A stretch of DNA of 32,000 nucleotides from Nostoc sp. UHCC 0702 (GCA_017164015.1 CP071065.1:5562091-5594090); one strand, 5' to 3'. Numbered from the stretch's first letter, positions 8,581-24,458 are shown. Notes: generated by a model not told the origin, from the letters alone. Made by a program: numbers and translations.

Positions 8581-11500
8581 TTGCGAAGGGGTGTAATTTT
8601 GAATACAGTTGAGTTTTTATCTTATCTTCGCAGCTTAGATATTCAAGTTTTTATTGATGGTGAAAAGTTCCGCTGTAACGCCCCTGAAGGAATTCTGACA
8701 GCAGAACTACGTGCAGAAATTCAAAAGCGTAAACCAGAAATTATTCAATTTCTACAACCATCTAATCGTACTAATAACCACAGCTTTAAACCTCTCGTAC
8801 CTATTTCCCGGTCAGAAAATCTTCCCCTCTCCTTTGCTCAACAAAGGCTGTGGTTTCTTAACCAATTAATTCCTAATAATCCTTTCTATAACATTTCACT
8901 AGCACTAAAATTAACAGGTTCCCTCAATCAAGCTGCCCTAGAGCAAACTTTTAACGAAATTGTGCGACGACATGAAGCTTTACGCACCACTTTTGTCATG
9001 CAGTCAGGGCAACCAGTTCAGATAATTAATCCTACGCTGACAATACCATTACCAATAATAGATTTAGGACAACTGCCACAAGCCGAACGAGAAATAGAAG
9101 CACGACGCCTCACTATCCAAGAAGCTCAACGTGCTTTTAATTTATCAACTGATTCGTTACTGCAAGTAAAATTGCTGCGGTTGGATGAAACACAATACAT
9201 CCTGCTGCTGACTATGCACCACATAGTCTCCGATGGTTGGTCTATTGGAGTGCTGATTAAAGAGATAGCAGCACTCTACACAGCCTTTGCCAACAATCAG
9301 CCTTCTCCTCTAGCGAAACTTACAATCCAATATGCAGACTTTGCATACTGGCAACGCCAATGGTTGCAAGGGGAAGTATTAAAAAACCAACTGAGTTATT
9401 GGCAGAAGCAATTAAACGGCATTTCTATGCTAAATCTGCCAACTGACAGACCAAGATTAGCTGTTCAAACTTACCAAGGTGCAAGGCAACCTCTGCAATT
9501 ATCAAAAAGTTTGAGCAAAGCACTTTTAACTCTCGGACAGCAAGCAGGGGTAACTTTGTTTATAACCCTACTAGCAGCATTCCAAGTTTTACTTTACCGC
9601 TATACACAACAAGAAGATATTGCTATTGGTTCACCTATTGCCAATCGCAACCGTAGCGAAATTGAAGGATTAATTGGTTTTTTTGTCAATAGCTTAGTAC
9701 TGCGTACTGACCTCTCAGGAAATCCAACTTTTCGGGAATTATTGAGTCGAGTTAAACAGGTAGCTTTAGGCGCTTATGCTCATCAAGATTTGCCTTTTGA
9801 AAAGCTGGTAGAAGAACTACATCCAGAGCGGAATTTAAATCAAAATCCGCTATTTCAAGTTGTTTTTGCGCTACAAAATGCGCCGATGTCTGCGTTAGAG
9901 TTACCTCGTTTAACTTTAAGTCCGCTACCATTAGATACGGAAACAACACGCTTTGATTTGGAGTTTCACCTGTGGGAGCCAAATACTCAAAATGGTTTAT
10001 GGGTAGATAGCTCAGAAGGAATTAGTGGTTTTGTAATTTACAGTACTGATTTATTTGATCAGGCTACTATCACCAGGATGTTAGGACACTTCCAAACATT
10101 ACTAGAAGGTATAGTTGCAAATCCAGAACAACGAATTGCACATTTACCACTTTTAAGCGAATCTGAGTTAGATCAGTTGTTGGTTCAATGGAATAATACG
10201 CAAATAGATTATCCTCAAGATAAGTGTATCCATCAGTTATTTGAGAGTGTTGCACAGCAAAATACTGATACCATAGCTTTGGTATTTGGTGAACAACAAC
10301 TCAGCTACAAAGAGTTAAATAAACGCAGTAACCAACTTGCACATTATCTCAAAAAATTAGGAGTTAAAGCTGAAGTTTTAGTTGGACTTTGTGTAGAACG
10401 CTCTTTTGAAATGGTAATCGGAATGTTGGGCATCTTGAAAGCAGGCGGAGCTTATGTGCCTCTAGACCCAAGCTATCCATCTGAACGTTTGCACTTGATG
10501 CTGAAAGATGCTCAAGTTTCAGTTTTATTAACTCACGAGCAATGGCTGGAACGTTTAGAAAATAATAATTCACAAGTAATCTGTTTAGATAAAGATTGGG
10601 AAATTATTGCTCAAGAGATTGAAGAAAATCCGACTAACGAAGTTACAGTAGACAACTTAGCTTATATCATTTATACCTCTGGTTCAACAGGAAAGCCTAA
10701 AGGTGTAGAAATTGAACATAGAGGATTGTTAAATTTAGTATTTTGGCATCAAAAAGCCTTTGCAGTTTCACATCTTGACCGAGTAACGCAGATTGCTGGG
10801 GTTGCGTTTGATGCTTGCGGTTGGGAAATTTGGCCTTACCTGAGTGCTGGAGCAAGCATCTATATTGTAGATGAGCAAATCAGGCAAATGCCTGACCATT
10901 TACGAGATTGGTTAATATCAAAAGCGATCACAATTTCCTTTCTACCAACACCTTTAGCAGAAAAAGTTTTATTATTAGATTTTCCGGAGAATGCAGCGTT
11001 ACGAATATTGCTCACAGGTGGTGATAAACTAAATCAATATCCTTTAGCTTCTCACTCTTTCCAAGTATTTAATAATTATGGCCCAACTGAGAACACAGTT
11101 GTGACAACTTCTGGGCATATTTCTGTTAACAATAAAGATAATTTAGCACCTGCAATTGGTCGCGCGATCGCTAACACGCAAGTCTACATATTAGATCAAT
11201 ATTTACAACCTGTGCCTATTGGTGTTTCAGGAGAATTGTACATCAGCGGTGATGGATTAGCACGAGGTTATTTCAACCGTCCTGATTTGACTGCTGAGTC
11301 CTTCATTTCTAATCCTTTTACTAATAAGTCAAAAGCACAACTTTATAAAACAGGTGATTTAGTTCGCTATCGATTAGACGGCGACATGGAATTTTTAGGT
11401 CGCCTCGACGACCAGGTAAAAATTCGTGGCTACCGCATTGAGTTGGGAGAAATTGAAGCAGTACTCAGTCAGCATCCAGCAGTGCAGCAAACTGTAGTCA

Positions 11501-13308
11501 TAAATCGTGAAGATGAACAGGAAAAACGCCTAGTAGCTTATGTAGTACCAAAAACCGAATATAACAGCGAACAGGAAAATATGCAATTAATGCAATTGCA
11601 GAATGAGCAAGTTTTGCAATGGCAGATGCTCTATAACGAAACTTATAATCAACCTGCTAATTCCGATCCAAAATTGAATTTTATCGGCTGGAATAGTAGT
11701 TACAGCAATCAGCCAATTCCAGCAGAACAGATGCGTGAGTGGGTGAATAACCAAGTCGAGCATATTTTGGCTTTACAACCCAAACGAGTGTTAGAAATTG
11801 GTTGTGGAACAGGTTTAATTCTGTTTAGGGTTGCACCTGACTGCACAAAATATTGTGGCACAGACTTTTCCTCAGTTTCACTTAACTATATTCAGCAGCA
11901 GTTACAAAACCAAGAAATGCCGCAGGTAACGCTGTATCAGCAAATGGCTACTGATTTCGAGAAAGTAGAAACAGCAGCTTTTAATGTAGTAATTATCAAC
12001 TCAGTTGTACAATATTTTCCTACTATTGATTATCTGATTCGTGTATTAGAAGGTGCTGTGCAGGCAACTGCACCGGGTGGCTTTATCTTTATAGGAGATG
12101 TGCGTAGTTTGCCACTTTTGCAAGCTTTCCATGCATCAGTGCAACTGTATCAAGCTGAACCTTCCCTTACACGGTTCGAGTTGCAGCAACGGGTAAAAAT
12201 GCAAATATTTCAAGAAACAGAGTTAGTCATTGACCCAGCTTTTTTTACTGCAATCAAGCAACACTTTCCACAAATTAATGATGTACAAATTCAACTGTTG
12301 CGGGGTAAACATCACAATGAGTTAACTCAGTTTCGTTACAATGTAATTCTTACTATTGAGGGCGAAACTGTTAACAATACTGAAGATTATCCAGTTTCAA
12401 ATTGGTCTGAAAATAATTTAACACTGTCAGCAGTGCATCAGTTATTAATTGATAATCAGCCAGAAATATTAAACATTATAAATGTACCTAATGCGCGGGT
12501 AATGTCAGCAGTTAAAATAGCAGAATTGCTATCAGATGTAGAAGGTTTTAAAACTGTAGCTGAAATACGTAAAGCTTTACAAGAACTCGAAAATTTCGGA
12601 GTAGAACCAGAAGATTTTTATGGGCTGAATGTACCTTATAGGGTTGATATTACCTGGTCACATTCAAGTATTGAAGGACATTATGATGTGGTTTTTATAC
12701 GGCAAGATAGAGTAGCTAAGAAAACTATTTTTCCACATAGCACGGCTGACTCTCGGACTTGGCAATCTTACGCCAATAATCCTCTACAAGCCAAAGCAGC
12801 ACGTAAGTTAGTGCCGCAGTTACAGACTTACATCACACAAAAACTGCCTGAGTATATGATGCCATCAGCTTTTGTAATATTGGAGTCTTTACCTCTAACA
12901 GCTAATGGTAAAGTCAATCGCCGCGCCTTAAGAGCATTGCATGATGCAATCAAACCCCAATTGACTGAAAATTACATTGCACCGAGAACTCCTATTGAAC
13001 AAGTGCTGGTGAAAATTTTTGCTGAGCTTTTGGGACTTAAACGTGTAGGAATTTATGACAATTTCTTTGAATTAGGTGGTCATTCATTACTAGCAACTCA
13101 GCTTGTCTCTAGAGTGCGCGACACCTTGCACGTGGAGTTACCTTTGCGTAGCGTATTTGAGGCATCGACAATTGCAGAATTATCTCAGGTGGTAGAAAGT
13201 TTTAAAGGGAGCAATGCTCAAAGTCAAGCCCCGATTTTAGCACCACTATCGCGTGAAAGTCGCCGCATTAAGCTATCTTCTTTAAAGGAACAGAACAAAG
13301 GTTCTTAG
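8581..13308 (+). CDS. Non-ribosomal peptide synthetase, docking-C-A(methyltransferase insert)-T (predicted N-methyl-Leu module)
   Basis: 1575-aa ORF. The start is uncertain: TTG 8581 in the ORF track, with an alternative in-frame TTG at 8599 giving MNTVEFLSYL. N-terminal TubC-type docking domain, then C (HHIVSDGWS). A domain: LAYIIYTSGSTGKPKGV, NNYGPTENT, GELYISGDGLARGY, YKTGDLVRYRLDGDMEFLGRLDDQVKIRGYRIEL. A roughly 450-aa insert with SAM motif VLEIGCGTG lies between A8 and A9 (LPEYMMP). PCP: FFELGGHSLL. Stachelhaus code DAWFLGNVVK is the canonical Leu code. Confidence 0.95.
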   Translation: MRRGVILNTVEFLSYLRSLDIQVFIDGEKFRCNAPEGILTAELRAEIQKRKPEIIQFLQPSNRTNNHSFKPLVPISRSENLPLSFAQQRLWFLNQLIPNNPFYNISLALKLTGSLNQAALEQTFNEIVRRHEALRTTFVMQSGQPVQIINPTLTIPLPIIDLGQLPQAEREIEARRLTIQEAQRAFNLSTDSLLQVKLLRLDETQYILLLTMHHIVSDGWSIGVLIKEIAALYTAFANNQPSPLAKLTIQYADFAYWQRQWLQGEVLKNQLSYWQKQLNGISMLNLPTDRPRLAVQTYQGARQPLQLSKSLSKALLTLGQQAGVTLFITLLAAFQVLLYRYTQQEDIAIGSPIANRNRSEIEGLIGFFVNSLVLRTDLSGNPTFRELLSRVKQVALGAYAHQDLPFEKLVEELHPERNLNQNPLFQVVFALQNAPMSALELPRLTLSPLPLDTETTRFDLEFHLWEPNTQNGLWVDSSEGISGFVIYSTDLFDQATITRMLGHFQTLLEGIVANPEQRIAHLPLLSESELDQLLVQWNNTQIDYPQDKCIHQLFESVAQQNTDTIALVFGEQQLSYKELNKRSNQLAHYLKKLGVKAEVLVGLCVERSFEMVIGMLGILKAGGAYVPLDPSYPSERLHLMLKDAQVSVLLTHEQWLERLENNNSQVICLDKDWEIIAQEIEENPTNEVTVDNLAYIIYTSGSTGKPKGVEIEHRGLLNLVFWHQKAFAVSHLDRVTQIAGVAFDACGWEIWPYLSAGASIYIVDEQIRQMPDHLRDWLISKAITISFLPTPLAEKVLLLDFPENAALRILLTGGDKLNQYPLASHSFQVFNNYGPTENTVVTTSGHISVNNKDNLAPAIGRAIANTQVYILDQYLQPVPIGVSGELYISGDGLARGYFNRPDLTAESFISNPFTNKSKAQLYKTGDLVRYRLDGDMEFLGRLDDQVKIRGYRIELGEIEAVLSQHPAVQQTVVINREDEQEKRLVAYVVPKTEYNSEQENMQLMQLQNEQVLQWQMLYNETYNQPANSDPKLNFIGWNSSYSNQPIPAEQMREWVNNQVEHILALQPKRVLEIGCGTGLILFRVAPDCTKYCGTDFSSVSLNYIQQQLQNQEMPQVTLYQQMATDFEKVETAAFNVVIINSVVQYFPTIDYLIRVLEGAVQATAPGGFIFIGDVRSLPLLQAFHASVQLYQAEPSLTRFELQQRVKMQIFQETELVIDPAFFTAIKQHFPQINDVQIQLLRGKHHNELTQFRYNVILTIEGETVNNTEDYPVSNWSENNLTLSAVHQLLIDNQPEILNIINVPNARVMSAVKIAELLSDVEGFKTVAEIRKALQELENFGVEPEDFYGLNVPYRVDITWSHSSIEGHYDVVFIRQDRVAKKTIFPHSTADSRTWQSYANNPLQAKAARKLVPQLQTYITQKLPEYMMPSAFVILESLPLTANGKVNRRALRALHDAIKPQLTENYIAPRTPIEQVLVKIFAELLGLKRVGIYDNFFELGGHSLLATQLVSRVRDTLHVELPLRSVFEASTIAELSQVVESFKGSNAQSQAPILAPLSRESRRIKLSSLKEQNKGS
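8599..8760 (+). other. TubC_N-type (beta-hairpin) NRPS N-terminal docking domain
   Basis: NTVEFLSYLRSLDIQVFIDGEKFRCNAPEGILTAELRAEIQKRKPEIIQFLQ matches the recalled TubC N-terminal docking pattern (..L..L...G..L...G..L....P.G.L...L...I...K.E.I..L). Confidence 0.7.
11470..12840 (+). other. SAM-dependent methyltransferase domain embedded in the A domain (between core motifs A8 and A9)
   Basis: The insert begins after KIRGYRIELGEIE (ends about 11460) and ends before LPEYMMP (about 12844). It contains FIGWNSSYSNQPIPAEQMREWV and the SAM-binding VLEIGCGTG (11788-11814), typical of NRPS N-methyltransferase domains. Confidence 0.8.
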
Positions 13309-13374
13309 TAGTATATGAAAAAATTTGGCGTTGCTGAATAATAGGCTTCTTGCATAAATCTTTTTTTTGCCTCA

Positions 13375-13400
13375 CGCAAAGGCGCAAAGGCGCAAAGGCG
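13375..13400. repeat. Short tandem octamer repeat (CGCAAAGG x3)
   Basis: cgcaaaggcgcaaaggcgcaaaggcg read directly from the sequence downstream of the NRPS stop. Confidence 0.8.
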
Positions 13401-13407
13401 CTAACTG

Positions 13408-13534
13408 ATATCTTGCATTATTCTCAATTAACCCTGTGGTGGGCACTGCCAACAACGTAAAAATCAAGGTTTGAGTGAACCATTAGCAGTGCCCACCCTA
13501 CAAAAATGTCAATAACGCAACTGGTGCAAGATAT
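13408..13534. mobile_element. MITE-like nested palindromic element
   Basis: Outer inverted repeat ATATCTTGCA (13408-13417) / TGCAAGATAT (13525-13534). Inner 12-bp inverted repeat GGTGGGCACTGC (13438-13449) / GCAGTGCCCACC (13486-13497). No coding potential. Confidence 0.5.
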
Positions 13535-13652
13535 GAACTAAGAAGAACGCGAACAAAACGACTTTTGCTCATTGTCTAATGATAATTTCCTAGACGCTAT
13601 CATGATAAGCATATAAAATGCAGTGCGATCGCACAATTAAATCTAAACTCAG

Positions 13653-14168
13653 ATGAGCATGTATCAATTTCCACAATATTTCTGGCGTTGCGCCCTGGTA
13701 GTTCTTCTAGCATTAACTCTATATGGATGGGGTGCAAAGTCAGCACATGCGCTGCTGAGGCAACATCATGATTCTCCAAGCGTTTTGCGCTATCATTCGC
13801 AAGTCTCTATCAAGGATGAAAAAGGATATGCTTGGCAAGTATTGCTGTTCAAGCAGAATTACAATAATCCAATTAAAGAATTAAGGTTGCGGTTGGTTGG
13901 GTTTCCTGGTGTGGTTGAAGTCACTCACCCCCAACCATTAGAAATTGAAACAGCAGGTGGAAAATTGCTTTTGGCATCGGATGCCTACGCTTTGGCTGCA
14001 CCCGCCCTGAATGTGGGTGAATATGAATTAACTGATGTCTTACCCAAACTACCAACTACGGATGCCCTTAAACTCCATGTACCAACTAAGAACAAACAGC
14101 CATTAATTCTCAGCATCCCCAACTCTGTAGTAACTGAGTGGCAATGGCTAGTGACAGAAATTGATTAA
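13653..14168 (+). CDS. Secreted hypothetical protein (conserved cyanobacterial type, possibly DUF3122)
   Basis: 171-aa ORF with an N-terminal signal peptide (CALVVLLALTLYGWGAKSAHA). The family assignment is from memory only. Confidence 0.6.
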   Translation: MSMYQFPQYFWRCALVVLLALTLYGWGAKSAHALLRQHHDSPSVLRYHSQVSIKDEKGYAWQVLLFKQNYNNPIKELRLRLVGFPGVVEVTHPQPLEIETAGGKLLLASDAYALAAPALNVGEYELTDVLPKLPTTDALKLHVPTKNKQPLILSIPNSVVTEWQWLVTEID

Positions 14169-14293
14169 TATAAAGTACAGGCACTTTCCATACCATCCTT
14201 AATGTTCTAAGCTTGAGCGATTTGGTGGTTAGCGGCCTTCAAAATAGAAAAATCGTATTAATTGCCAATAATTAGAAACTTGTAGCAAGGCTT

Positions 14294-14441
14294 GATATCA
14301 TGTCCGGTTAATTAGTTATGATTCCCGCAATTATTGCACCCCACCCCTAACCCCTCAGAGTCAACGGGGAGGGGAAACAAAGCGTAGCTTTGGTGGGGTG
14401 GGGTTCTTTGGTTTTTATAAGTAATCAAGCGGACATGATAT
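14294..14441. mobile_element. MITE-like element with terminal and internal inverted repeats
   Basis: Terminal inverted repeat GATATCATGTCCG (14294-) / CGGACATGATAT (14430-14441). Internal inverted repeat CACCCCACCCC / GGGGTGGGG. The left end resembles the left end of the element at 26478. Confidence 0.55.
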
Positions 14442-14500
14442 GACTCAATTTCAAGGTTTCAAGGTTTCATCTATCATGCCGATTTTATTTATCTGTTGAT

Positions 14501-15022
14501 CTACTTAATTAACTGTTGCAAATAATCTTCCACAATTTGGAATGCTTCAGGACTGTTACCATAACTAGGGTTACTTCTATAAAATACTTTTTTCTGTTTC
14601 TTGCCTAAACATACTGAAATAGAATAAGGATAGTACCTTTTATTAGGCGGCGCACCATACTCTGTTGCTAAATTCATAAACCCACTTGATTTAATCAATT
14701 TTTTCAGTTTATCCAACTGATTGTTAGTAAGTTTTTTATTTCTTGTCTGAGTAGTGACTTGACTAGGTATTGCAGATATAGGATTATTGTATGATTCTAT
14801 TTTTTCACTCCAAATTATTGACAAATTTTTGACTGCAATCGAAACAGTAGGTGCAGAATATGTCAGCACAAAATTTTCTGTTTGATTCGTACATTCACTT
14901 TGAGCTAAATTATCGACTATCATCAACGAAGTAGGAACAGAACTCAAACTGTGCTGAAGCAAATTTTGCCCTATATTAGAAAATTCAGAAATGATTGCTA
15001 GGGAAAATAAAAAAATTTTCAT
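14501..15022 (-). CDS. Hypothetical protein with N-terminal signal/hydrophobic segment
   Basis: 173-aa ORF, AT-rich, N-terminus MKIFLFSLAIISEF. No motif recognised. Confidence 0.5.
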   Translation of the reverse strand: MKIFLFSLAIISEFSNIGQNLLQHSLSSVPTSLMIVDNLAQSECTNQTENFVLTYSAPTVSIAVKNLSIIWSEKIESYNNPISAIPSQVTTQTRNKKLTNNQLDKLKKLIKSSGFMNLATEYGAPPNKRYYPYSISVCLGKKQKKVFYRSNPSYGNSPEAFQIVEDYLQQLIK

Positions 15023-15071
15023 ATTAATATGTAAGGTAATTCCAGAAAATAAATTATTCCGTTTGAAGTTG

Positions 15072-15134
15072 TTGACTATTGACTATTGACTATTGACTGT
15101 TGACTACTGACTATTGACTATTGACTATTGACTG
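15072..15134. repeat. Heptanucleotide tandem array (TTGACTA x9, STRR-like)
   Basis: Nine contiguous 7-nt units (variants TTGACTG, CTGACTA) lie in the 125-nt spacer between CDS 14501..15022 and CDS 15148..16089. Confidence 0.9.
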
Positions 15135-15147
15135 TAAACCGTTTTCA

Positions 15148-16089
15148 TCAAAAACGATTAGATGCTAATTTATTCAACCATTTCGATGCTTCGTTGTACG
15201 ATTTGAACTGGCTTTCACTGGCACGAAACTCTTTTGTATGAACCATTCTTCTCCCCTGAACCCACTTCGCGCCGTGGTACTTGTGCAACAATTCGTGATA
15301 CAACACAAACTCAACTACAAATTCCGGTACATTAACATCATCAAGAGTCAAACTGATCACTACCCTATCTCTAGCTGACTCATAGTGTCCGAACTTACGG
15401 TAAGTGTTAATTCGGCTCCATGCTAGGCGTGGTTTGGCAAGACTTGCCGCGAAATATTCATGGTTAACTTTATGAAATAATTCATCTAGGTTATAAAACT
15501 TTCCTTGTGGATTTTCTGCCACTACCTCAGCAATCAAATCAAGCTCTAACACTAGATTAGTGTATTCTTCTGTACTGACAAATGACCTGATCAGTTGTGT
15601 ATTCTGTTGATTTTTGCCAAAAAGTGCAGATTCTACTAATGCTTGCAATACTACTTTTGGTGCATTTATAAATCCCTCATTAATCATGATATTGGCTGTG
15701 CTATTAGACCTTTTCCCCTGATATAGCCCAGCTAAATTAGTTATGCCAATCATTACTTGAAGTGAGTTTTGACCACGTTCATTCAGGATTTGTTTGGCAG
15801 TTGACAACACACAGCCACTAGTTCTCAGGTGGAGTTCTAAATACTGTTCATTTGTTAAAAACTTGATCCATGAGTAGATTCTACGGGATGAAGGAGTCAG
15901 ATTTGCTGGCGTTGCTTGTTGGGTAGAACATATTTTTTCAATTGTTGTTGCTGTTGTAATTAAATTTTGATTTAATTGTTGTATTTGAATTGATTCATAA
16001 TTATGTTTTGCAGCTAAATTAAAAATTTTATGCAATATCTTATTTTGTTGCACTTTGATGTTTTTTAAGCGAATACCCTCAACGTTCAT
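15148..16089 (-). CDS. DUF45/YgjP-like (M48-related) putative zinc metallohydrolase with a long N-terminal extension
   Basis: 313-aa ORF. The C-terminal region RLAWSRINTYRKFGHY...VISLTLDD...FVVEFVLYHELLHKYHG...HTKEF...WLNKL fits the recalled DUF45 pattern, including the HExxH motif (HELLH). Confidence 0.6.
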   Translation of the reverse strand: MNVEGIRLKNIKVQQNKILHKIFNLAAKHNYESIQIQQLNQNLITTATTIEKICSTQQATPANLTPSSRRIYSWIKFLTNEQYLELHLRTSGCVLSTAKQILNERGQNSLQVMIGITNLAGLYQGKRSNSTANIMINEGFINAPKVVLQALVESALFGKNQQNTQLIRSFVSTEEYTNLVLELDLIAEVVAENPQGKFYNLDELFHKVNHEYFAASLAKPRLAWSRINTYRKFGHYESARDRVVISLTLDDVNVPEFVVEFVLYHELLHKYHGAKWVQGRRMVHTKEFRASESQFKSYNEASKWLNKLASNRF

Positions 16090-16142
16090 TTGAGTTTTGT
16101 AACTATAAAGGAATAAACAAGTTCTTACATTTCAATATTACT

Positions 16143-16286
16143 AGGACTTACGCAAGTGTCATATTTTTTTCGTCTGGGCAGTACTGGGTCAAAAGTCAAT
16201 AGTCCAAAAAATCTTGCTTAAAGACTATTGACTATTGACTATTGACTGCCATCACAGTAAATCTGTGTGCCAGTTGCGTAAGTCCT
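16143..16286 (-). mobile_element. MITE copy A (TIR AGGACTTACGC), inverted relative to copies B and C
   Basis: The ends are aggacttacgcaagtgtcat ... gtgtgccagttgcgtaagtcct. The reverse complement aligns by eye with the copies at 23652 and 24553. It contains an internal (GACTATT)n heptamer tract (about 16223-16248). Confidence 0.8.
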
Positions 16287-16360
16287 GATTACTATTTGAT
16301 GTAAGATGGTATTCTTTGTATCAAAAGCCACAGTTAAGACAAAAACTAAATTTCAAGTGT

Positions 16361-16384
16361 AGGAGCAATTCATGAATTGCTCCT
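16361..16384 (-). terminator. Perfect palindromic hairpin just downstream of the 597-aa CDS stop
   Basis: AGGAGCAATTCATGAATTGCTCCT lies 15 nt beyond the stop at 16399. No clean T-run follows on the minus strand, so terminator function is tentative. Confidence 0.4.
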
Positions 16385-16398
16385 GGGTGAATTTGGTA

Positions 16399-18192
16399 TT
16401 AGTGATCTACTTCACTGGGGTGAGGCTCAAAAAATGGAATACCAAATCCTTGAGTTGCTAACTTTTTGGCGATCGCTTGCAAGTTGATCATCTCCTGACG
16501 GGCAGAGACAATATTGTTGGCATCTTCCATATCTCCTTTTTCATAAGCTGCTTGCAAGTAACCGAGAAGTCTGTGGTAGCCATCCAAGGCTTCCTTGGCA
16601 TCTGGATGATCACTAGGTGCTGGCGTAATATTTCTCAGGTATGCTGGTCTAGCCCCATTAGCTGGCGACCCATCTTGATAAACACGTAACACCGTTTCGA
16701 TTTCGCGGAACTTGCTAAAATGCTCCATACCATCGGCAATGATTCGCCCAGCTAGTTGATAGAGAGTGTCTGGATATTGGGGTTGACGAAGTGTCGCCAG
16801 TACCCGTGAATACTGACCATCTATACCACCACTGGGGGCTTCCACGGCGATAAAGTCAGCCAAGGCTTTTCTATTGAGAGGACGCAGTTGTCGGGGACGA
16901 GTATGACCGTTAGCTACAGGGATGCGACTGGCAACTTCTAAAGCCGGGCCATAAGCTTTTTTCGTCAGTCCTGCGTGGTCAAGTTCCCAAAGCAATTGAT
17001 TCACCCAACGCAGGTGACGCATTTCACTCACAGCGACCAACAGCAACTCATGACTGACGAAAATTAGGTCATTGCGGAGTGTTGGCCAGATGTTCACATC
17101 TGCCTCTTCAGGAGCAACTAAGGAGTAAAGGGCGTAAAGGTATTCTAAACAAAGAACATGTTCTAAACCAGCCAAATCGTACAACTTAGTTGCTAATACC
17201 TCTGGATTTTTGTATGGATTAGCATCATCAGGTGCTGGTGGTCGATATATCTGGGAGATTTCTTTGCCCCCAAGCACAACAGCCAACTCTTGCCAGCGTT
17301 GGCTGATTTCGTAGTGATCCATTTGGAAGGGGCGGTTTTGTTGGGGAGTCCCCAAAGCACCAGCACGACCGCCTAGGGAACGATCCGATCGCAGCCAATC
17401 AATGGGTGTATTCGCCCGGTCGGGGTCGGCTGAGGCACCAGAGGGCAGTGTCGCCTCACCGAGAGTATCTTCGCCTAAAACTATATCTGGGTGATTGGAA
17501 GCCCAGTAGAAACAGGCACAGTCACGGAAATCATGCTGCCAAGGAGAACAAAGACTCTGGGTTAACTCTCCGGGCTGATAGACTTGTCCGATAACGCCGC
17601 TTTGAGAATCAACAAAAACCCGACGCCAGCCGTTCAGTTCAAGTTCAGCGGTGGATGGAGGATTGTCTTCACCGCCTGCTTGGCGTTGCCAGAGTTTGAT
17701 TTTCACTAAACCAGGCTCTAAAGAACGCACCAAACGCCAGACTATTAGACCATCCAAAGGAACTTTTTTCCCTTCTGCATCTAGTTGAAATAGGGGTATG
17801 TTCTTGCCCCCTTGTTCCACAGCATCGAGATACCATGTACCTGTAGATAGGCTATTACCTGAGTCTCCTTGAAGTGCTGCCCGTAGTTGTGTCGCCGCCG
17901 TAATTAATTCTGGATTGCCTGCATGGAAAGCCGGGTTTAATTCAGGATCGCTCGATTCTATATTTAGTAGTAATGCACCACCACGTAAAGCATCGGGGTT
18001 AGAACTATCGCTTTCAGAAACAAACTCGAAAACTAAACCAGGAAAAAAGCGACGGTCAAGGTTGCGCTGGTCAAATTCTAACCCAGGATAGCAGTTGCCA
18101 ACGCCGCTTTCTAAGCGTGTGGTGGCTGGATTGCCCACCACTTGTCGGTCAGACTTAGCTGTGAGGTTACGGGGAAAAATTTTCTCGCTCAT
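16399..18192 (-). CDS. Fusion protein: LodA/GoxA C-terminal-like domain (N-terminal half) + ferritin-like domain (C-terminal half)
   Basis: 597-aa ORF whose ATG is 5 nt after the radical SAM stop. Residues 207-235, PGELTQSLCSPWQHDFRDCACFYWASNHP, match the recalled LodA C-terminal signature (PGDLT..M.CPWQADF..C ... YWWPPQSP). Residues about 332-597 contain LEHVLCLEYLYALYSL and VAVSEMRHLRWVNQLL, as in the Pfam Ferritin-like family PF12902. Confidence 0.8.
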   Translation of the reverse strand: MSEKIFPRNLTAKSDRQVVGNPATTRLESGVGNCYPGLEFDQRNLDRRFFPGLVFEFVSESDSSNPDALRGGALLLNIESSDPELNPAFHAGNPELITAATQLRAALQGDSGNSLSTGTWYLDAVEQGGKNIPLFQLDAEGKKVPLDGLIVWRLVRSLEPGLVKIKLWQRQAGGEDNPPSTAELELNGWRRVFVDSQSGVIGQVYQPGELTQSLCSPWQHDFRDCACFYWASNHPDIVLGEDTLGEATLPSGASADPDRANTPIDWLRSDRSLGGRAGALGTPQQNRPFQMDHYEISQRWQELAVVLGGKEISQIYRPPAPDDANPYKNPEVLATKLYDLAGLEHVLCLEYLYALYSLVAPEEADVNIWPTLRNDLIFVSHELLLVAVSEMRHLRWVNQLLWELDHAGLTKKAYGPALEVASRIPVANGHTRPRQLRPLNRKALADFIAVEAPSGGIDGQYSRVLATLRQPQYPDTLYQLAGRIIADGMEHFSKFREIETVLRVYQDGSPANGARPAYLRNITPAPSDHPDAKEALDGYHRLLGYLQAAYEKGDMEDANNIVSARQEMINLQAIAKKLATQGFGIPFFEPHPSEVDH

Positions 18193-18197
18193 AATAA

Positions 18198-19520
18198 TTA
18201 TGTGTGTGGGCGATCAAAAATATCAGGACGTTCAGACAAAGCGCGATCGTAATAACGCAGGCAGTAATCCAGCCAGCCACGGATGTAATCGCAACCATCA
18301 CGCCCGGAGGCGATAACTTCAGCATGACAACCGCCACCGCATAAATAACGTGCCCAACAAGAACGGCAAGGTTCTTGGCGGTCAACTAAACGAGCTTGCA
18401 AAAACTCTTCACGCGCTGTTTGAGAAGGGCCATCAGCAAATGTTCCCAAGGCAAAACTATCTTGGTCGATAGTGCGGTGACAGGTAAAGTAATTACCTTC
18501 GGCACTCACAGATACATAACTAGCTGCGGCACCGCATGGTAAAGGGCGACAGGAACCACGGTGAATTTCCCGCAAAGCGATCGCTAAATTAGAAAAGCGC
18601 AAGTCTTCACCTGTCAGCAGGCATTGCCATTCAGCTTCAGCCACCCGGATCATTTCTTGCAGGAAAATTGCCCAGTCTTCTGAGGTCAAAGCTAGTTTCG
18701 GGTCAGGGGATGTTCGCAGAGGACTCACGCCAATTTCTTTAAACCCGATGGCACTCAGGGCTGCAACTCGTTCCAAAACTCGCAGGTCGGTGCGAGTCAC
18801 TGTACAACGTGCTGCAATCCTCGCTTGTCCCGGATCTGCCAGTAAGGGGCGCAGATGCTCCACAACTGTAGCAAAGCTGCCTGTACCACGGTTATTAGTT
18901 CTGTGTAAATCATGCACAGTCGCGCCACCATCAATGCTCACAGACACAGCAAAAGCATTGTCCCGCAACAGTTGTATATCAGACTCAGTAATTAAAGTCC
19001 CATTGGTGGTGATAGAAAAACCTACCGAGATGCCACGACGAGCCGCCAGTTCATTGGCATATTCCACACTCCGGTAGAGTGTGGCTCGATTCAGAAATGG
19101 CTCACCCCCAATAAAACCGATGGTGACTCGTCGTTTCTGTGCCTGTTCAATCAGTCGCTTGATGGTCGTCAAAGCGACTTCTACAGACATTAAACGTTGC
19201 CGTCCTCCAAATCGGCCTTCATCAGCATAACAATAGCTACATGTCAAGTTGCAGGATTGGGCTAAATTCAGAGAGATGGCAGATGGTTCTTGGTCGGCGT
19301 GCCAAGCACTAACGGCTGGTTCAGCAGAAGATACACTAGCACGTAATTCGGCGATCGCTTCTGGCTGGTTATCTGCTAATGCTGCAAAGAAATCTGGGCT
19401 AACTGCAAACAGTTGGGAGTTGCCCATCAAAAATACCAATGGTGTTTCACCTGGTAGCAAGTGAAACCAAGGCTGGGGAATCTCAACAACCGCCACAGAG
19501 TTGGCAAAACTAGATTGCAT
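18198..19520 (-). CDS. Radical SAM / SPASM-domain maturase (anSME / QhpD-like)
   Basis: 440-aa ORF whose ATG is 3 nt after the upstream TAG, with AGGAG 8 nt upstream. Radical SAM motif CNLTCSYC at 19230-19253. GGEPF motif present. SPASM motifs: CGAAASYVSVSAEGNYFTC and CRSCWARYLCGGGC (CX2CX5CX3C, 18327-18368), plus downstream Cys residues. Confidence 0.9.
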   Translation of the reverse strand: MQSSFANSVAVVEIPQPWFHLLPGETPLVFLMGNSQLFAVSPDFFAALADNQPEAIAELRASVSSAEPAVSAWHADQEPSAISLNLAQSCNLTCSYCYADEGRFGGRQRLMSVEVALTTIKRLIEQAQKRRVTIGFIGGEPFLNRATLYRSVEYANELAARRGISVGFSITTNGTLITESDIQLLRDNAFAVSVSIDGGATVHDLHRTNNRGTGSFATVVEHLRPLLADPGQARIAARCTVTRTDLRVLERVAALSAIGFKEIGVSPLRTSPDPKLALTSEDWAIFLQEMIRVAEAEWQCLLTGEDLRFSNLAIALREIHRGSCRPLPCGAAASYVSVSAEGNYFTCHRTIDQDSFALGTFADGPSQTAREEFLQARLVDRQEPCRSCWARYLCGGGCHAEVIASGRDGCDYIRGWLDYCLRYYDRALSERPDIFDRPHT

Positions 19521-19523
19521 ATA

Positions 19524-21197
19524 CTACTCCTGTGACTCCAAACGACGCGCCACTACTCTGGCTACATGCTGGCGAACTGGTGTGGCCACTGTAGGCGGTG
19601 GGGCAACTTGACCGGGAATCAAAGTTAATTCTGCTGGGGCTTGGGCACGCAGCTTGTCCACAAACCCTAGAATCTGATTATACTGCCGCCTTGTCAGAGA
19701 TAACGCTGTGGCATCCGAGTCACGCATGTAAGGAGGCATCCGCATATCATGGACGCGATCGCGTTGGATACGGGCATCTCGATGACGAGCATCAGATGTT
19801 TCCGGCGGCTGTTCACTGAGTTCTGCCACCACACCGTAGGGAGGACGTAACAAATACTCGACTCGCACGCCGAAGGTACGTAGAAAATCTGTGAGGTTTT
19901 CCACATCTGTGAGTGAAGCATGAACGCTGGCGGCGACGGCGGAGTAAGGTAAGCGATCGCGGGCTACAGATTGACTAATCAAATCTGGTACCTTATCTGC
20001 ATAAGGCTTGTCTTCGGATGTCATACTACCAAAATCAGTGCGGGGTGGCGCTTCTGCAACAGGTTCGGGTATGCCACCACGGGCATTCTCATTCAATGCT
20101 CGCGATCGGTTAGCATCCAAATTGAGTAAACTTAATGTCTCGAACACGCGTTGGAAGAGATCGGCAATTTCTGAGGTGGTCAGCTGTTCATCATCCAACG
20201 CCGGAACGGGTAAGTCACGGTCTGAGAGTTCGTCAGCCAAGGACAAGAAAGGACGGCGGTCGGGAGAAAAGTCTGGCGGCCCGGAGAAAAATCGAGCTAT
20301 TGCCCTAAATCGTTCTCCACCAACTACTACAAAAGCTGTAATGATGCCATCACAAGTATCATCCACAACACCCCAAGAGCGATCGCTTGCTACTGGAATC
20401 TCTGCACTCGCTCCATCGTAGGTATCATAAGGATCAGGATTGTTAAAACGTCTGAAATCGGCATCGTAATTTGACCATGCTGAATTAGGATTTAGGATGC
20501 GATTTTGTTCTAGAACGATTTCATGTATGCGTCTAGTGCCTGGTGCGGGTGCAGCAGTAGCCGTTGGTGGCCCATACACATGTCCGTAAGCAGGTGTATA
20601 CCGCAGACGGAGCGTACCCAAGTTTACCCCCATTTCCTCAGCATCCACTGGGCGAATCACTTGAATGTCCCCTAGAGGTATGGGTTTATCGGGGAAAACT
20701 AGAGGTTCCGAATTCACGCCGCGTGGACTTGTCGCCAGCAGTGGGTAGCGTTGATAATCGTTAGCACGAACTTCTATCCTGGCACTAAAACCACAGGTCG
20801 GGTCGCCAGTGCGTCGTGCTGCTTTTAAATTCGCTGCTTCCACCACATAGGAAACAGCATCAAGGGGTGCTTTTAATTCTTGCAGAAGTTTACTTGTTAA
20901 GGGAACTTCTTCTATTGAGCTATCGGCATGTTGTACTCGCGCCCACAACTCAAAAAATGGCGCCACTGGTCGAAAAAGGTTTTGATCTTTAAAGTGAATA
21001 ATACTAGGTAGATAAGGGCGTATTGAACCATCGGGTTGGATTTCAAAGCTAGTTGCTGGCTCAATAATTGTCTTAGCTGCACCATGTAGGGTTGGGTCTT
21101 CCTGCCAGGTGAAACTCTCTAGGGGGATACTGCTGCCACCTAGGCGGGCAATAGCCATCGGTGGATAGAAAAAGATTTCAAGCAATCGAGGCTGCAC
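19524..21197 (-). CDS. LodA/GoxA N-terminal-like protein (first part of a split LodA-like protein)
   Basis: 557-aa ORF with a GTG start preceded by GGAGG (21203-21207, 5-nt spacing). YPPMAIARLGGS (21132-21164) resembles LodA HPSIGVARLGN. VVDDTCDGIITAFVVVGG...FFSGPPDFSPD (20259-20363) resembles LodA DDISDG...VVGSPDFAPE. MPPYMRDSDATALSLTRRQY resembles LodA LPLMP...L..TQ. The LodA sequence is recalled from memory. Confidence 0.8.
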   Translation of the reverse strand: MQPRLLEIFFYPPMAIARLGGSSIPLESFTWQEDPTLHGAAKTIIEPATSFEIQPDGSIRPYLPSIIHFKDQNLFRPVAPFFELWARVQHADSSIEEVPLTSKLLQELKAPLDAVSYVVEAANLKAARRTGDPTCGFSARIEVRANDYQRYPLLATSPRGVNSEPLVFPDKPIPLGDIQVIRPVDAEEMGVNLGTLRLRYTPAYGHVYGPPTATAAPAPGTRRIHEIVLEQNRILNPNSAWSNYDADFRRFNNPDPYDTYDGASAEIPVASDRSWGVVDDTCDGIITAFVVVGGERFRAIARFFSGPPDFSPDRRPFLSLADELSDRDLPVPALDDEQLTTSEIADLFQRVFETLSLLNLDANRSRALNENARGGIPEPVAEAPPRTDFGSMTSEDKPYADKVPDLISQSVARDRLPYSAVAASVHASLTDVENLTDFLRTFGVRVEYLLRPPYGVVAELSEQPPETSDARHRDARIQRDRVHDMRMPPYMRDSDATALSLTRRQYNQILGFVDKLRAQAPAELTLIPGQVAPPPTVATPVRQHVARVVARRLESQE

Positions 21198-21305
21198 ACA
21201 AACCTCCGATAATAAATACTTGGATACAACCGAGGCTAGCGTACATTTTCTATATTTAATTCAATACTTCATATAAATTGTGTTAAGTATTTTTCCAGTG
21301 TTAAG
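21198..21305. promoter_or_regulatory. Divergent promoter region between the LodA-like operon and the flavoprotein gene
   Basis: 108-nt AT-rich spacer between two divergently oriented start codons. Individual -10/-35 elements were not resolved. Confidence 0.4.
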
Positions 21306-22625
21306 TTGCAACTTGTGAATAGTAGTAATTGGCAAAATAATGTAGCGATCGCTGGGGTAGGATTGGCAGCTGCGGCCGTGGCCATGCGGTTGCTTAGTTG
21401 CGGCTTTCGTCCAGTGCTGCTGAGTCGTGGACTGCCCCACATCAAAGGCGTTGAGGCAATTCCTGAGTCAGCCTTGCGGCTATTTGATGCCCTTGATTTG
21501 ACGCCAGCTTTGCAAATGGCAGGCGGTTTCTGGGTGGAGGGATTTGAAAACGCTTGGCAAGGTAACGAATCTGTAATTAGACCAGGAAGGTATATACATG
21601 TTGAGCGATCGCTCTTAGCCCAAGCTGCGATCGCTATGGTGATGCAGCAAGGTGCAGCTATGGTATCTAGTAATACCATTGCCCCACTGGTTGTAGAAAA
21701 AGCATCAGTGCGTGTGATCATAGATGGTGTAGAACAACGATTTGCCGCAGCGATTGATGCCACTGGACGTTCAGCCCTCTGGTCACGACCTATCGAACGG
21801 CATACTAGGGAGATGGCGCAGATATTTAGTACTTTTGGTGATGAAAGTTTACTCCGTGGACGCATAGCTCAATTTTCGGGCGGTTGGGCTTATCATCTTG
21901 GTTTGCCGGATACCATGACAGTTGGTGTTGTCAGTCCGCACCATACTAGTTATGAGCAAGTTCAAGAGCTAATTAGAGAAAATTTGTGTCTTCCTGCTAA
22001 GCAATTACACGTAGTAGGGCGACGACCAGTTTCTCCACAGTGGGCAGAAGCACCTATTCAAGACCGCAGGCTGGCTGTGGGAGATGCAGCACTAGCATAC
22101 AGCCCGATCGCTGGACAGGGAATCCGTTTTGCTCTATCGAGTGCTTTAGCTGCTGCTGCTGTGGTTCGCACCTGGCGAGATTCACCAGCAGATGCAGATT
22201 ACGCGACGCAGTATTACCACGAACTGGTAAACGCAGAAAAGTTGCGACATCTATCTAATATCAATTCGTTATCTAGCAATCAGGCCCTACCTACCAACCC
22301 AGCACAACCATCTTTTAATAATGCTGCCCTGCCATCTAGAGTTTATTACACTGGACAAACCAAGATGACAGGACTTTACATCAACGGATTGATCAAATGC
22401 ACAGAAGCGATCGCTTTACCTGATGGTAACATAGTGCGCTGGCTGGGTAACTTTGACCTATTGACCATGCGAGACTATTGCACCAACCCACTTGCGACTA
22501 CCAGTTTAATCGAGCAATTGCATCGGCAGCAATTAGCTGAAGCACAAGCCCTATACTTAATTCGCTGGTGTTTAGAACACAACATTATCTCAACCGCAGA
22601 TATAAAAGGGAATTGGGACAACTAA
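21306..22625 (+). CDS. FAD-dependent monooxygenase, LodB/GoxB/QhpG-like, with an extra C-terminal domain
   Basis: 439-aa ORF with a TTG start in the track (alternative GTG at 21315). Dinucleotide-binding VAIAGVGLAAAA (GxGxxA). DATGRSA motif. GD motif LAVGDAALAYSPIAGQGIRFAL. A low-complexity linker (SSNQALPTNPAQPSFNNAALPS) is followed by a domain of about 95 aa. Confidence 0.8.
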   Translation: MQLVNSSNWQNNVAIAGVGLAAAAVAMRLLSCGFRPVLLSRGLPHIKGVEAIPESALRLFDALDLTPALQMAGGFWVEGFENAWQGNESVIRPGRYIHVERSLLAQAAIAMVMQQGAAMVSSNTIAPLVVEKASVRVIIDGVEQRFAAAIDATGRSALWSRPIERHTREMAQIFSTFGDESLLRGRIAQFSGGWAYHLGLPDTMTVGVVSPHHTSYEQVQELIRENLCLPAKQLHVVGRRPVSPQWAEAPIQDRRLAVGDAALAYSPIAGQGIRFALSSALAAAAVVRTWRDSPADADYATQYYHELVNAEKLRHLSNINSLSSNQALPTNPAQPSFNNAALPSRVYYTGQTKMTGLYINGLIKCTEAIALPDGNIVRWLGNFDLLTMRDYCTNPLATTSLIEQLHRQQLAEAQALYLIRWCLEHNIISTADIKGNWDN

Positions 22626-22741: not shown

Positions 22742-23542
22742 CTACAATTCCATCACACTATCCAGACCCCGTTTCAATCCTACAAAAGAACTCACTTGGC
22801 GAATAGCTAATAAAGTTCCTTTTACATAAGGTTCTGCACTACTTCCCGCTTCATGTCGAATTATCAGCTTTTCCTCCCCTAGACCAAAAATTGCTTCCAC
22901 CGCTAAAGTATAACCAGGTAAACGCAACGAATGGACTTGCGTCCCATTGAGTGTTGCACCTCTACTTTCTTTTGCACCTTGAGTGTTTTCTATGGGATTG
23001 TATGGGATTGGCTGTTTAACTCGCCCTAATCGAGAAGCAAGTTCCCTGGCTGTCCCACTGGGAGCATCCACTTTCTTTTCAGAAGCGTAATCTACAATTT
23101 CCCAAATGCTCGTGTACTTGGCTGCTAATTCGGCAAAACGTTGCAGAAGCACTGCTGTAATTGCAAAGTTGCCAGCTGCTAAAACACCTACTTGGCGCTT
23201 AATTGCCTGTTCATTGATTTCTACAAAGTCTTCATCTGTAAGTCCAGAAGTACCAATGACTACATGGATACCGTTTTCGATAGCTTCTAGGACGTTGCTT
23301 TTAACTACATTTGGTTTAGTGTAGTCAACTAAAACATCACACTTTTTAATTAAAGCTTCTTTGACAGAAGCACTGATGATCACATCTGATGATGTCTCCA
23401 CAATTACATCGCCCAATCTACTGCCAGCATGAGTTCTGGAGATTGCTCCCACAAGATTCAAGTCTTGTTCAGTGTCAATCGCTTTGACTAAGGAACGCCC
23501 TACCCATCCTGTCGCACCAGCTAAACAAACATCTATTGCCAT
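22742..23542 (-). CDS. dapB: 4-hydroxy-tetrahydrodipicolinate reductase (DapB) family protein
   Basis: 266-aa ORF. N-terminal GATGWVGR nucleotide-binding motif. EKKVDAPSGTA and IIRHEAGS match the recalled DapB signatures (H..K.DAPSGTA; ..TH.A). It may be a paralogue rather than the housekeeping copy. Confidence 0.7.
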   Translation of the reverse strand: MAIDVCLAGATGWVGRSLVKAIDTEQDLNLVGAISRTHAGSRLGDVIVETSSDVIISASVKEALIKKCDVLVDYTKPNVVKSNVLEAIENGIHVVIGTSGLTDEDFVEINEQAIKRQVGVLAAGNFAITAVLLQRFAELAAKYTSIWEIVDYASEKKVDAPSGTARELASRLGRVKQPIPYNPIENTQGAKESRGATLNGTQVHSLRLPGYTLAVEAIFGLGEEKLIIRHEAGSSAEPYVKGTLLAIRQVSSFVGLKRGLDSVMEL

Positions 23543-23810: not shown

Positions 23811-24458
23811 TCAGCTGTTAAGCTTTTCGATTTGCTGCTGGAAGTAGTCTCGCCAACCTGTGGGCAAAGCCTCAACTTGTACGACGCGGTGTAACAGTTC
23901 TAGATCATTTGTTTCGCGTGCATAAAGTCGGGTAATATCAGCAACAGTGACATTGTTTGAGTCTCGACTGATTAACGACAAAGTATCACCATTTCCTACT
24001 TTACCCTCTTGCAGCACTGAAAAGTAGAACCCCGTTAAGCGGCTATCTAAAAACTGTTTAACTATATCAGCACGTCCAAACTTGATTCCGAGTTTATAAC
24101 AAGGCATTCGAGGTTGAGTCACCATTACCTCTGCGCTACCGATCGAGAAGCGATCGCCAATATTAACCTGATCTTCTAACAGCCCAACGGTAGTGAAGTT
24201 CTCACCAAACATTCCCCAGGACAAATCCATGTCAGGTAACTTGCGCCGCCAATAGTCGTAATGCTCGAATGGATAAGCATAAACTGCTTTGTCTTTGCCT
24301 CCGTGGACGCTCAAATCAGCTTGTCTATCCCCATCTAAATTGAGCGATCGCATCATCACCCGTTCCTCAACTGGTTCTTTAAAAATCCCAGTTGTAACTG
24401 TTTTGCCTTTCCAAAGTACTTCACGGGGAAGTCCTACATTGACTGAAATAACTTGCAT
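23811..24458 (-). CDS. MOSC domain-containing protein (YiiM-like)
   Basis: 215-aa ORF. VGLPREV..KGKTVTTGIFKEPV, ADLSVHGGKDKAVYAY and GENFTTVGL...IGDRF.IGSA...VTQPRMPCYKL match the recalled YiiM/MOSC pattern, including the conserved Cys. Confidence 0.8.
   Translation of the reverse strand: MQVISVNVGLPREVLWKGKTVTTGIFKEPVEERVMMRSLNLDGDRQADLSVHGGKDKAVYAYPFEHYDYWRRKLPDMDLSWGMFGENFTTVGLLEDQVNIGDRFSIGSAEVMVTQPRMPCYKLGIKFGRADIVKQFLDSRLTGFYFSVLQEGKVGNGDTLSLISRDSNNVTVADITRLYARETNDLELLHRVVQVEALPTGWRDYFQQQIEKLNS

Follow-up and report, generated by a model that had tools for sequence, protein, structure and literature searches.

A widespread gene cluster encoding a split LodA/GoxA-like protein together with QhpD-like and QhpG-like putative maturases

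Introduction

Protein-derived quinone cofactors are rare, and to our knowledge only two cysteine tryptophylquinone (CTQ) systems are known, with very different maturation logic. LodA/GoxA are CTQ-dependent amino-acid oxidases that produce H2O2, and their cofactor is matured by the LodB/GoxB flavoprotein alone. Maturation of quinohemoprotein amine dehydrogenase (QHNDH; QhpABC with QhpD, QhpE, QhpF and QhpG) needs four proteins that act on a 9-kDa peptide, namely a radical S-adenosylmethionine (radical SAM) enzyme, a flavoprotein, a protease and an exporter; QhpC is, as far as we know, the only known substrate of QhpD. Here we describe a cluster of four genes found in a 32,000-nt stretch of the genome of Nostoc sp. 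UHCC 0702 (GCA_017164015.1, CP071065.1:5562091-5594090; this whole stretch is called the window below). The cluster belongs to a family that joins a LodA scaffold with maturases otherwise known only from QHNDH.

The cluster consists of three minus-strand open reading frames (ORFs) and a divergent one. The minus-strand ORFs encode a protein that we call A (19524-21197, 557 aa, GTG start), a radical SAM/SPASM enzyme (18198-19520, 440 aa) and a protein that we call C (16399-18192, 597 aa), which carries the C-terminal third of LodA/GoxA with an insert and, in addition, a ferritin-like domain. The plus-strand ORF (21306-22625, 439 aa, TTG start) encodes a flavoprotein. Homology shows that protein A and residues 1-320 of protein C correspond to one LodA/GoxA-type fold, divided between what are predicted to be two subunits. 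We consider it rather likely that the four genes make up a self-contained CTQ-type enzyme with its maturation machinery, following a QHNDH-like route and not the LodB-only one. The locus had been singled out by a first-pass annotation made from the sequence alone, and its claims are taken up where the results bear on them.

Split LodA/GoxA homology of proteins A and C

A LodA/GoxA profile was made from six annotated family genes that were found on plasmids by tblastn and then aligned. Compared with this profile by hhalign, the protein A family was matched with a probability of 98% (E 3e-13) and the protein C family with a probability of 92% (E 6.4e-7), residues 203-312 of C being placed on GoxA 520-632. 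Concatenation of A and C from 62 loci gave one collinear alignment, running from position 41 to 660 of the 668 positions of GoxA (97.9%, E 5.9e-13), obtained at a permissive setting with which the stretches between motifs are unreliable. The motifs follow each other as in GoxA: YPPxxIARxG, xxANxKA, DDxCDG...PPxFxP and MPPYMRD...LTxxQY, the last at the end of A, then C34-x-PGLE/FFPGL at the start of C, the cofactor segment described below and DWLR...RWQxL. Peptides seen in the translations of the window include YPPMAIARLGGS, VVDDTCDGI...PPDFSPD and MPPYMRDSD...LSLTRRQY, as well as QPGELTQSLCSPWQHDFRDC...FYWASNHPD.

Protein A spans the N-terminal two-thirds or so of LodA/GoxA, from YPPxxIARxG via DDTCDG...PPDFxPD to MPPYMRDSD...LSLTRRQY. 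This had been proposed by the first-pass annotation, and both the profile comparison and a structural search bear it out. The AlphaFold2 model of protein A has a predicted local distance difference test score (pLDDT) of 73, and its N-terminal beta domain is modelled with confidence; a Foldseek search of the PDB with this model returned GoxA only (34 chains, E ~1e-9, 1.6e-9, probability 1.0), the next match having E 2e-3. The template modelling (TM) scores of the model against GoxA are low, 0.22-0.27, so the support that it gives concerns local fold and sequence and not global superposition.

LodA homology resumes straight after the end of A, in residues 1-55 of protein C (18028-18192, minus strand). 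The motif found there, L-E-x-G-V-G-N-C34-x-P-G-L-E...R-R-F-F-P-G-L, is aligned to 'L..C.GG.FHPG.EL' of LodA/GoxA, which contains the invariant C456 of Martelella GoxA; C34, P36 and G37 are invariant in 62/62 sequences. Residues 56-200 (17593-18027, minus strand) are modelled as a confident fold (pLDDT ~73-94) with no structural match in the PDB, and they are ~100 residues longer than the LodA/GoxA counterpart, where the gap is ~70 residues. The first-pass annotation had seen the C-terminal signature of LodA at the start of the 597-aa protein. The signature is indeed present, but its actual place is residues 206-236; residues 27-55 carry C34-x-PGLE...FFPGL, and ~150 aa (56-200) lie between the two. 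The point at which A and C are split falls within the region covered by Pfam LodA_C.

Natural fusions of A and C were also found, namely four proteins of 1110-1201 aa that fall into separate 50%-identity clusters, and A lies beside C in 48 of 80 loci. The assignment of A and C to a split LodA/GoxA protein draws on five independent lines: the structure match, the profile-profile comparison, the collinearity, the cofactor-segment profile and the natural fusions.

Several searches gave less. With the whole of protein C, phmmer and profile searches against the PDB produced nothing useful, and LodA/GoxA were found with the isolated cofactor segment alone. Foldseek with the model of C yielded the ferritin-like domain only and no GoxA match, as residues 210-322 are modelled at pLDDT <50. 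An 89-residue GoxA fragment used as bait in a database of 5.8 billion proteins returned only a 103-aa fragment. As to curated models, protein A has no Pfam match and scores 12.8 bits on NCBIfam GoxA (LodA_N was matched weakly in 13/30 members of the family), while the scores of protein C are 22.8 bits for LodA_C, with a cutoff of 25, and 11.9 bits for NCBIfam LodA. For genuine LodA/GoxA proteins, LodA_N gives 198-240 bits and LodA_C 101-114 bits. With scores so far under these, A and C are to be seen as a deeply divergent branch and not as members by the curated definitions. The first-pass annotation had expected domain searches to find LodA_N and LodA_C, Radical_SAM with SPASM, PF12902 and a flavoprotein model; PF12902 and Radical_SAM were found, but LodA_N and LodA_C did not reach cutoff and no Pfam match was obtained for SPASM or for the flavoprotein.

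Predicted cofactor segment in protein C

The predicted cofactor segment consists of residues 206-236 of protein C, QPGELTQSL-C215-SPWQH-D221-FR-D224-C225-A-C227-FY-W230-ASNHP-D236 (17485-17577, minus strand). Alignments with LodA (3WEU), with the LodA/GoxA profile and with Pseudoalteromonas luteoviolacea GoxA put D221 on D512 of LodA and D678 of GoxA, C225 on C516 of LodA and W230 on W581 of LodA. We take D512/D678 to be the catalytic Asp of these enzymes, and C516 and W581 to be the pair that forms CTQ. This assignment agrees with the PDB entries for D678 mutants and with the literature (PMC7876137). A 49-residue profile of the segment, searched against the whole PDB, found LodA and GoxA only, at their CTQ sites. 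D221, C225 and W230 are invariant in 62/62 paired loci. From the alignment and this invariance we predict that C225 and W230 become CTQ and that D221 is the active-site Asp.

Four further residues of the segment, C215, D224, C227 and D236, are invariant in 62/62 loci as well. The spacing C-x5-D-x3-C-x-C-x2-W-x5-D was observed in 128/128 representatives that span the site, and it is the same in plasmid copies from Streptomyces and Rhizobium that are 33-35% identical. D221, C225, W230 and also C34 are common to the LodA/GoxA alignment. C215, D224, C227 and D236 are invariant solely in the radical SAM-associated family; at these positions LodA/GoxA have G/A, S/E/F, R/M/S/T and V/D/N, respectively. 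The family-specific extras amount to two Cys and two Asp, each pair being spaced as C-x8-D.

A near-equal spacing is seen in QhpC, where C27-x5-D33-x3-C37-x3-C41-x-W43-x5-D49 may be set against C215-x5-D221-x3-C225-x-C227-x2-W230-x5-D236 of protein C. The thioethers of QhpC are C7-E16, C27-D33 and C41-D49, and C37 and W43 form its CTQ (PMC8172795, PMC7876137). By analogy with this crosslink map, and given the family-specific Cys and Asp residues, we predict two thioether rings of the QhpD type in residues 215-236 of protein C, one of them enclosing W230.

Radical SAM enzyme and flavoprotein

The radical SAM enzyme falls into the QhpD/PapB/CteB clade of thioether-forming enzymes. Its translation contains CNLTCSYC and the complete CX2CX5CX3C motif, as CRSCWARYLCGGGC, just as had been read in the first pass. 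Pfam Radical_SAM was matched and Pfam SPASM was not. The best NCBIfam model is QhpD (TIGR03906, 263 bits, cutoff 453), PapB coming next with 253 bits, and the best PDB match is CteB (5WGG, E 1.7e-46), the template that was used for modelling QhpD (PMC7876137).

The flavoprotein, which shows the motifs GVGLAA, DATGRS and GDAA...GQGI, is QhpG-like, of the peptidyl-tryptophan dihydroxylase type. No Pfam match was obtained. The best NCBIfam model is QhpG (NF049967, 130 bits, cutoff 240), with GoxB (45 bits) and LodB (40 bits) behind it, and the best PDB match is QhpG as well (7CTQ, E 6.8e-5). The QhpG/LodB-like identity suggested by the first-pass annotation on the basis of these motifs is therefore retained, with QhpG ahead of GoxB and LodB.

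Higher scores were observed for a locus of Bradyrhizobium sp. ORS 111 (L029), in which the genes for A, C, the radical SAM enzyme (R) and the flavoprotein (F) have the order A-C-R-F. Here the flavoprotein scores 298 bits on QhpG, over the cutoff of 240, and the radical SAM enzyme 309 bits on TIGR03906, under the cutoff of 453. The flavoprotein gene of this locus (13083-14489) passes the QhpG cutoff though its neighbours are not those of QHNDH. Annotation pipelines would probably name the flavoprotein of A-C-R-F loci QhpG, a likely source of misleading annotation; 'QhpG' genes whose partners are not QHNDH are an example of automatic annotation that could be corrected.

Ferritin-like domain

The last 270 residues of protein C match PF12902 proteins (Caulobacter CC_0557, 3HL1), and a ferritin-like four-helix bundle is assigned by Pfam and Foldseek to residues 330-597 (16402-17205, minus strand). 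PF12902 scores 45.7 bits on protein C (cutoff 22.3) and was matched in 30/30 members of the family; Foldseek with the model of C found 3HL1 with E 8e-5 and a TM-score of 0.62. The ferritin-like domain that the first pass had placed in the 597-aa protein is confirmed by both. It is a C-terminal add-on, starting where LodA/GoxA ends. Its invariant residues are E344, Y351, E390-x-x-H393, E451 and H491, and the motifs LEH..EYLY and EMRHLRW resemble those of a bacterioferritin-like chain. The metal-site residues of C presumably correspond to the di-iron ligands of bacterioferritin.

A PF12902 gene adjacent to fungal lodA-like loci was noted in 2015 (PMC4417212). Unlike the stand-alone PF12902 proteins of those loci, the domain described here is fused to the LodA-like half that bears the cofactor segment. 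No PF12902 neighbour was found in six canonical bacterial LodA-like loci in which it was sought.

Distribution, gene order and annotation status

Proteins A and C have >1000 homologs each in a set of 5.8 billion proteins; none of these has a functional name, and all homologs of A are called 'hypothetical'. At E<=1e-30 there are 262 representatives among 1.84 billion cluster representatives. Protein C was found in 186 GTDB species representatives, from taxa that include Cyanobacteria, Acidobacteriota, Myxococcota, Alpha- and Betaproteobacteria, Planctomycetota, Actinomycetota and Nitrospira.

The first pass had raised co-occurrence of the four gene families in other genomes as a question, and they do co-occur: in a sample of 61 loci with >=5 kb either side of C, 58 have the complete set of four (A, radical SAM enzyme and flavoprotein <=7 kb from C). 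Gene order and neighbours were surveyed in 80 loci, with ORFs >=80 aa. The order A-R-C, which is that of the window and has the flavoprotein gene divergent on the upstream or the downstream side, was observed in 23 loci and the order A-C-R-(F) in 48. The picture of a LodA-like gene interrupted by a radical SAM gene is thus true of the window, where the latter does lie between the two halves, but this is one of two conserved gene orders.

The first-pass annotation had also regarded the architecture as undescribed, and we found nothing to the contrary in NCBIfam, in RefSeq product names or in the searchable literature. Neither A nor C is covered by a model of NCBIfam release 20. The RefSeq names of the four genes are 'hypothetical', 'hypothetical', 'radical SAM protein' and 'ferritin-like domain-containing protein'. 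Full-text searches, with subscription-only papers outside their reach, found no description of a split LodA-like protein together with a radical SAM enzyme and a flavoprotein.

Amazonocrinis nigriterrae CENA67, a close relative, has a decayed copy of the cluster (L009; NZ_JAECZC010000002, 8601-11353). There protein C is 96% identical to that of the window over residues 145-594 and is broken into two pieces, the radical SAM enzyme and the flavoprotein are truncated, and A is absent, which suggests recent loss in that lineage.

Comparison with known CTQ systems

With LodA/GoxA (Marinomonas mediterranea LodA, 3WEU/2YMW; P. luteoviolacea GoxA, 6BYW) the family has in common a homologous fold with motifs collinear over nearly the full length, the cofactor residues Asp-x3-Cys...Trp, an adjacent flavoprotein of the same superfamily and peroxidase genes near some loci of each. 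A further likeness is that no signal peptide was apparent in the N-termini of A and C by eye, without a predictor having been run. The differences are considerable. The Nostoc-type system is carried on two polypeptides, scores under the Pfam/NCBIfam thresholds, has a Cys-Trp spacing of 5 residues, invariant extra residues (C215, D224, C227 and D236) and a longer segment 56-200 in C, carries a ferritin-like C-terminal domain, has a radical SAM/SPASM partner that we call obligatory, and has a flavoprotein closer to QhpG. A LodA-type system would be a single polypeptide matured by LodB/GoxB only; here there are two polypeptides and a radical SAM enzyme.

QHNDH has the same pair of maturases, the radical SAM/SPASM enzyme of the family being closest to QhpD and the flavoprotein closest to QhpG. 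Unlike QHNDH, the family has no small leader-bearing gamma subunit, and the cofactor segment sits in a 597-aa LodA-homologous protein. Genes for the gamma subunit QhpC, the di-heme QhpA, the beta-propeller QhpB, the protease QhpE and the exporter QhpF were not found among the neighbours in the window, and genes for a protease, an exporter, a di-heme protein or a beta-propeller protein do not recur in the 80 loci. Given that no signal peptide was seen by eye and that no exporter or protease is conserved nearby, the enzyme is probably cytoplasmic.

Proposed maturation route and alternative readings

The CTQ reading of the four genes suggests the following route. Protein A and residues 1-320 of protein C would assemble into a LodA-like fold. 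The QhpD-like radical SAM/SPASM enzyme would first staple residues 215-236 of C by two thioether rings, each from a Cys sulfur to an Asp methylene; the ring partners would be C215 and C227 with D224 and D236 (C-x8-D each), with C215-D221 as an alternative, and one ring would run around W230 much as Cys41-Asp49 does around Trp43 in QhpC. The QhpG-like flavoprotein would then dihydroxylate W230, and crosslinking of C225 to W230 together with oxidation would yield the CTQ quinone. In its mature form the A/C complex would act on a primary amine or an amino acid, oxidising it at CTQ. More speculatively, the ferritin-like E/ExxH/E/H site might act as a built-in redox partner, handing on the electrons of reduced CTQ to O2 or H2O2, or might serve for disposal of peroxide. 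On this reading the family is probably a third, hybrid class of CTQ enzymes.

We put forward a wider proposal with more reserve, as something possible that we would not yet call probable: that the family bridges the two CTQ systems, as a heterodimeric LodA-type protein with a QhpC-like stapled loop, with no leader, protease or exporter, and with a di-metal ferritin-like domain as internal acceptor, so as to make up a quinone-plus-di-metal amine oxidase/dehydrogenase.

A number of observations weigh against the CTQ reading. The Cys-Trp spacing is 5 residues, compared with 65 in LodA and 15 in GoxA, and the cofactor segment, at pLDDT <50 in the monomer model, has no readable Cys-Trp geometry. 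The curated Pfam and NCBIfam cutoffs for LodA/GoxA are not reached by A and C, nor are the QhpD and QhpG equivalog cutoffs by the radical SAM enzyme and the flavoprotein of the window. No leader peptide of the QhpD/QhpC kind was found. QhpC was undetectable by sequence when the segment profile was searched against the PDB, so the likeness to QhpC is one of residue spacing and of maturases. In the ferritin-like domain the sixth canonical di-iron ligand is missing, with G488 at the position of the ExxH glutamate of the fourth helix. It should be added that our statements on CTQ, on the thioethers and on the substrate are inferences.

Some of these observations would fit a LodA-like scaffold with a cofactor other than CTQ, in which the di-metal centre of the ferritin-like domain is the real catalytic site and the LodA-like part binds the substrate. 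The modified residues could then be a Cys-Trp/Cys-Asp network made by the radical SAM enzyme without a quinone, or a hydroxylated Trp ligating the metal site. Fusion of the ferritin-like domain is universal, with invariant carboxylate and His residues in the domain, the cofactor loop has extra Cys and Asp and a spacing unlike that of LodA/GoxA, and A and C are very distant from the curated LodA/GoxA models. We nevertheless hold such an enzyme to be unlikely: the residues that are common to LodA/GoxA and invariant are exactly the CTQ-defining Asp, Cys and Trp, and the flavoprotein is one of the QhpG/LodB/GoxB group, for which the literature consulted here gives tryptophylquinone biogenesis as the only known role (PMC7876137).

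Another possibility is that the radical SAM enzyme acts on a separate small peptide, of the ranthipeptide/SCIFF kind of ribosomally synthesized peptides with post-translational modifications (RiPPs), or on protein A, the LodA-like pair being a tailoring or immunity enzyme. Its scores on the PapB, SCIFF and Nif11-type RiPP maturase models nearly equal that on QhpD, the ranthipeptide/SCIFF maturases PapB and CteB belong to the same thioether-forming clade, and many loci encode nearby a large protein akin to the 'TOMM system kinase/cyclase'. The ORF survey of the other loci covered >=80 aa only, a limit below which short precursors could have been passed over. Yet, unlike ranthipeptide/SCIFF systems, the family has no precursor gene that we could find. 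The window junctions are 3 and 5 nt (A/radical SAM and radical SAM/C), none of the window gaps holds a convincing precursor peptide, and the ORFs of the 310-nt downstream gap, of 20-36 aa only, are unlike precursors. No candidate substrate ORF >=80 aa recurs in the 80 loci, where the recurrent extra ORFs are regulators and oxidases only. All invariant Cys are in protein C, and the two family-only Cys flank the cofactor Trp and Cys. Taken together this makes a separate substrate quite improbable, and the predicted substrate is a large protein.

That the locus is a degenerate, non-functional remnant of a LodA-like gene broken by insertion of the radical SAM gene, as its position between the two halves in the window and the visibly decayed copy in L009 might suggest, is effectively refuted by conservation: both halves are intact and conserved over >=8 phyla with hundreds of invariant positions, the split recurs in two gene orders, and there are 262 cluster representatives.

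The family, present in >=186 species representatives from many phyla and unannotated in the databases examined, opens the question of how radical SAM stapling and flavin-dependent Trp dihydroxylation work on a large protein without a leader. It also raises those of a common ancestry of QhpC and the LodA cofactor loop, of the role of PF12902 ferritin-like domains, and of the amine and amino-acid oxidation chemistry of the soil and aquatic bacteria that are its hosts. Among these hosts are cultivable members of Bradyrhizobium, Paraburkholderia, Sulfitobacter, Streptomyces and Nostoc; the genes are sometimes plasmid-borne.

Neighbouring genes and context of the window

Two kinds of neighbour recur in the 80 loci. 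A protein of ~1090-1100 aa with SAM-domain, cyclase, AAA and TPR parts is encoded in 47 loci, and a BBE-like oxidase dependent on flavin adenine dinucleotide (FAD) in 27; in A-C-R-F loci the latter often lies directly upstream of A. In L029 the former (14497-17880, minus strand) has the domains SAM_1, Guanylate_cyc, AAA_16 and TPR, with a score of 579 bits for 'TOMM system kinase/cyclase' (cutoff 705), and the latter (6778-8304, plus strand; FAD_binding_4 and BBE) ends 5 nt upstream of A. The BBE-like oxidase may be a fifth member of the operon and the ~1100-aa protein a dedicated regulator.

Heme peroxidase genes (animal-heme, DyP) are located by some A-R-C loci, at 5999-7546 in L003, 1355-3232 in L019, and 11699-13237 and 15003-15632 in L094; such a gene was also seen beside a canonical lodA-like locus, L087 (1-712). 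These neighbours suggest, and would fit, peroxide-producing chemistry. Two canonical lodA-like loci, L087 (985-2901) and L088 (1043-2902), from plasmids of Mycetohabitans and Bradyrhizobium barranii, have in common an upstream pair of genes for proteins of ~400 aa and ~220 aa, annotated as 'hypothetical' and without Pfam match, which may be accessory genes of that LodA subgroup.

In the window, a Shine-Dalgarno sequence GGAGG (21203-21207, minus strand) was read 5 nt ahead of the GTG of protein A, and the 108-nt spacer between the divergent genes for A and the flavoprotein (21198-21305) is presumed to hold promoters in both directions. The layout given by the first-pass annotation, with four ORFs, gaps of 3 and 5 nt, a 108-nt divergent spacer and a GTG preceded by GGAGG, is as it stands in the sequence. 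The sequence of protein C matches a 'hypothetical protein' of Nostoc sp. UHCC 0702 with 100% identity. The G+C content of the four-gene cluster is ~49%, compared with ~36-40% in its flanks, and in Nostoc sp. UHCC 0926 a mobilizable plasmid of 76 kb carries a copy of the cluster that is 85% identical, with a recombinase adjoining. Judging from the contrast in composition and from this plasmid copy beside a recombinase, the cluster of Nostoc sp. UHCC 0702 looks horizontally acquired.

A gene of the dihydrodipicolinate reductase family (DapB-like; 22742-23542, minus strand) adjoins the flavoprotein gene and is followed by a MOSC/YiiM gene (23811-24458, minus strand). A DapB-like neighbour was also seen in three other fetched loci, including the cyanobacterial L009, and this cyclic-imine reductase might be functionally tied to the amine-oxidase-like system.

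Three consecutive nonribosomal peptide synthetase (NRPS) genes occupy 964-13308 (plus strand) of the window. Their products have the domains C-A-T-TE (1380 aa), C-A-T (1091 aa) and TubC_N docking domain plus C-A-MT-T (1575 aa), so that the thioesterase is found in the first of the three. The NRPS genes were considered as a part of the system and rejected, since other genomes do not keep them beside the cluster and their position is outside the GC-rich island. Two low-GC ORFs without Pfam match, at 15148-16089 (minus strand, 313 aa) and 14501-15022 (minus strand, 173 aa), are placed between the NRPS genes and the cluster. The window also contains a DUF3122 gene at 13653-14168 and a response-regulator gene at 151-723.

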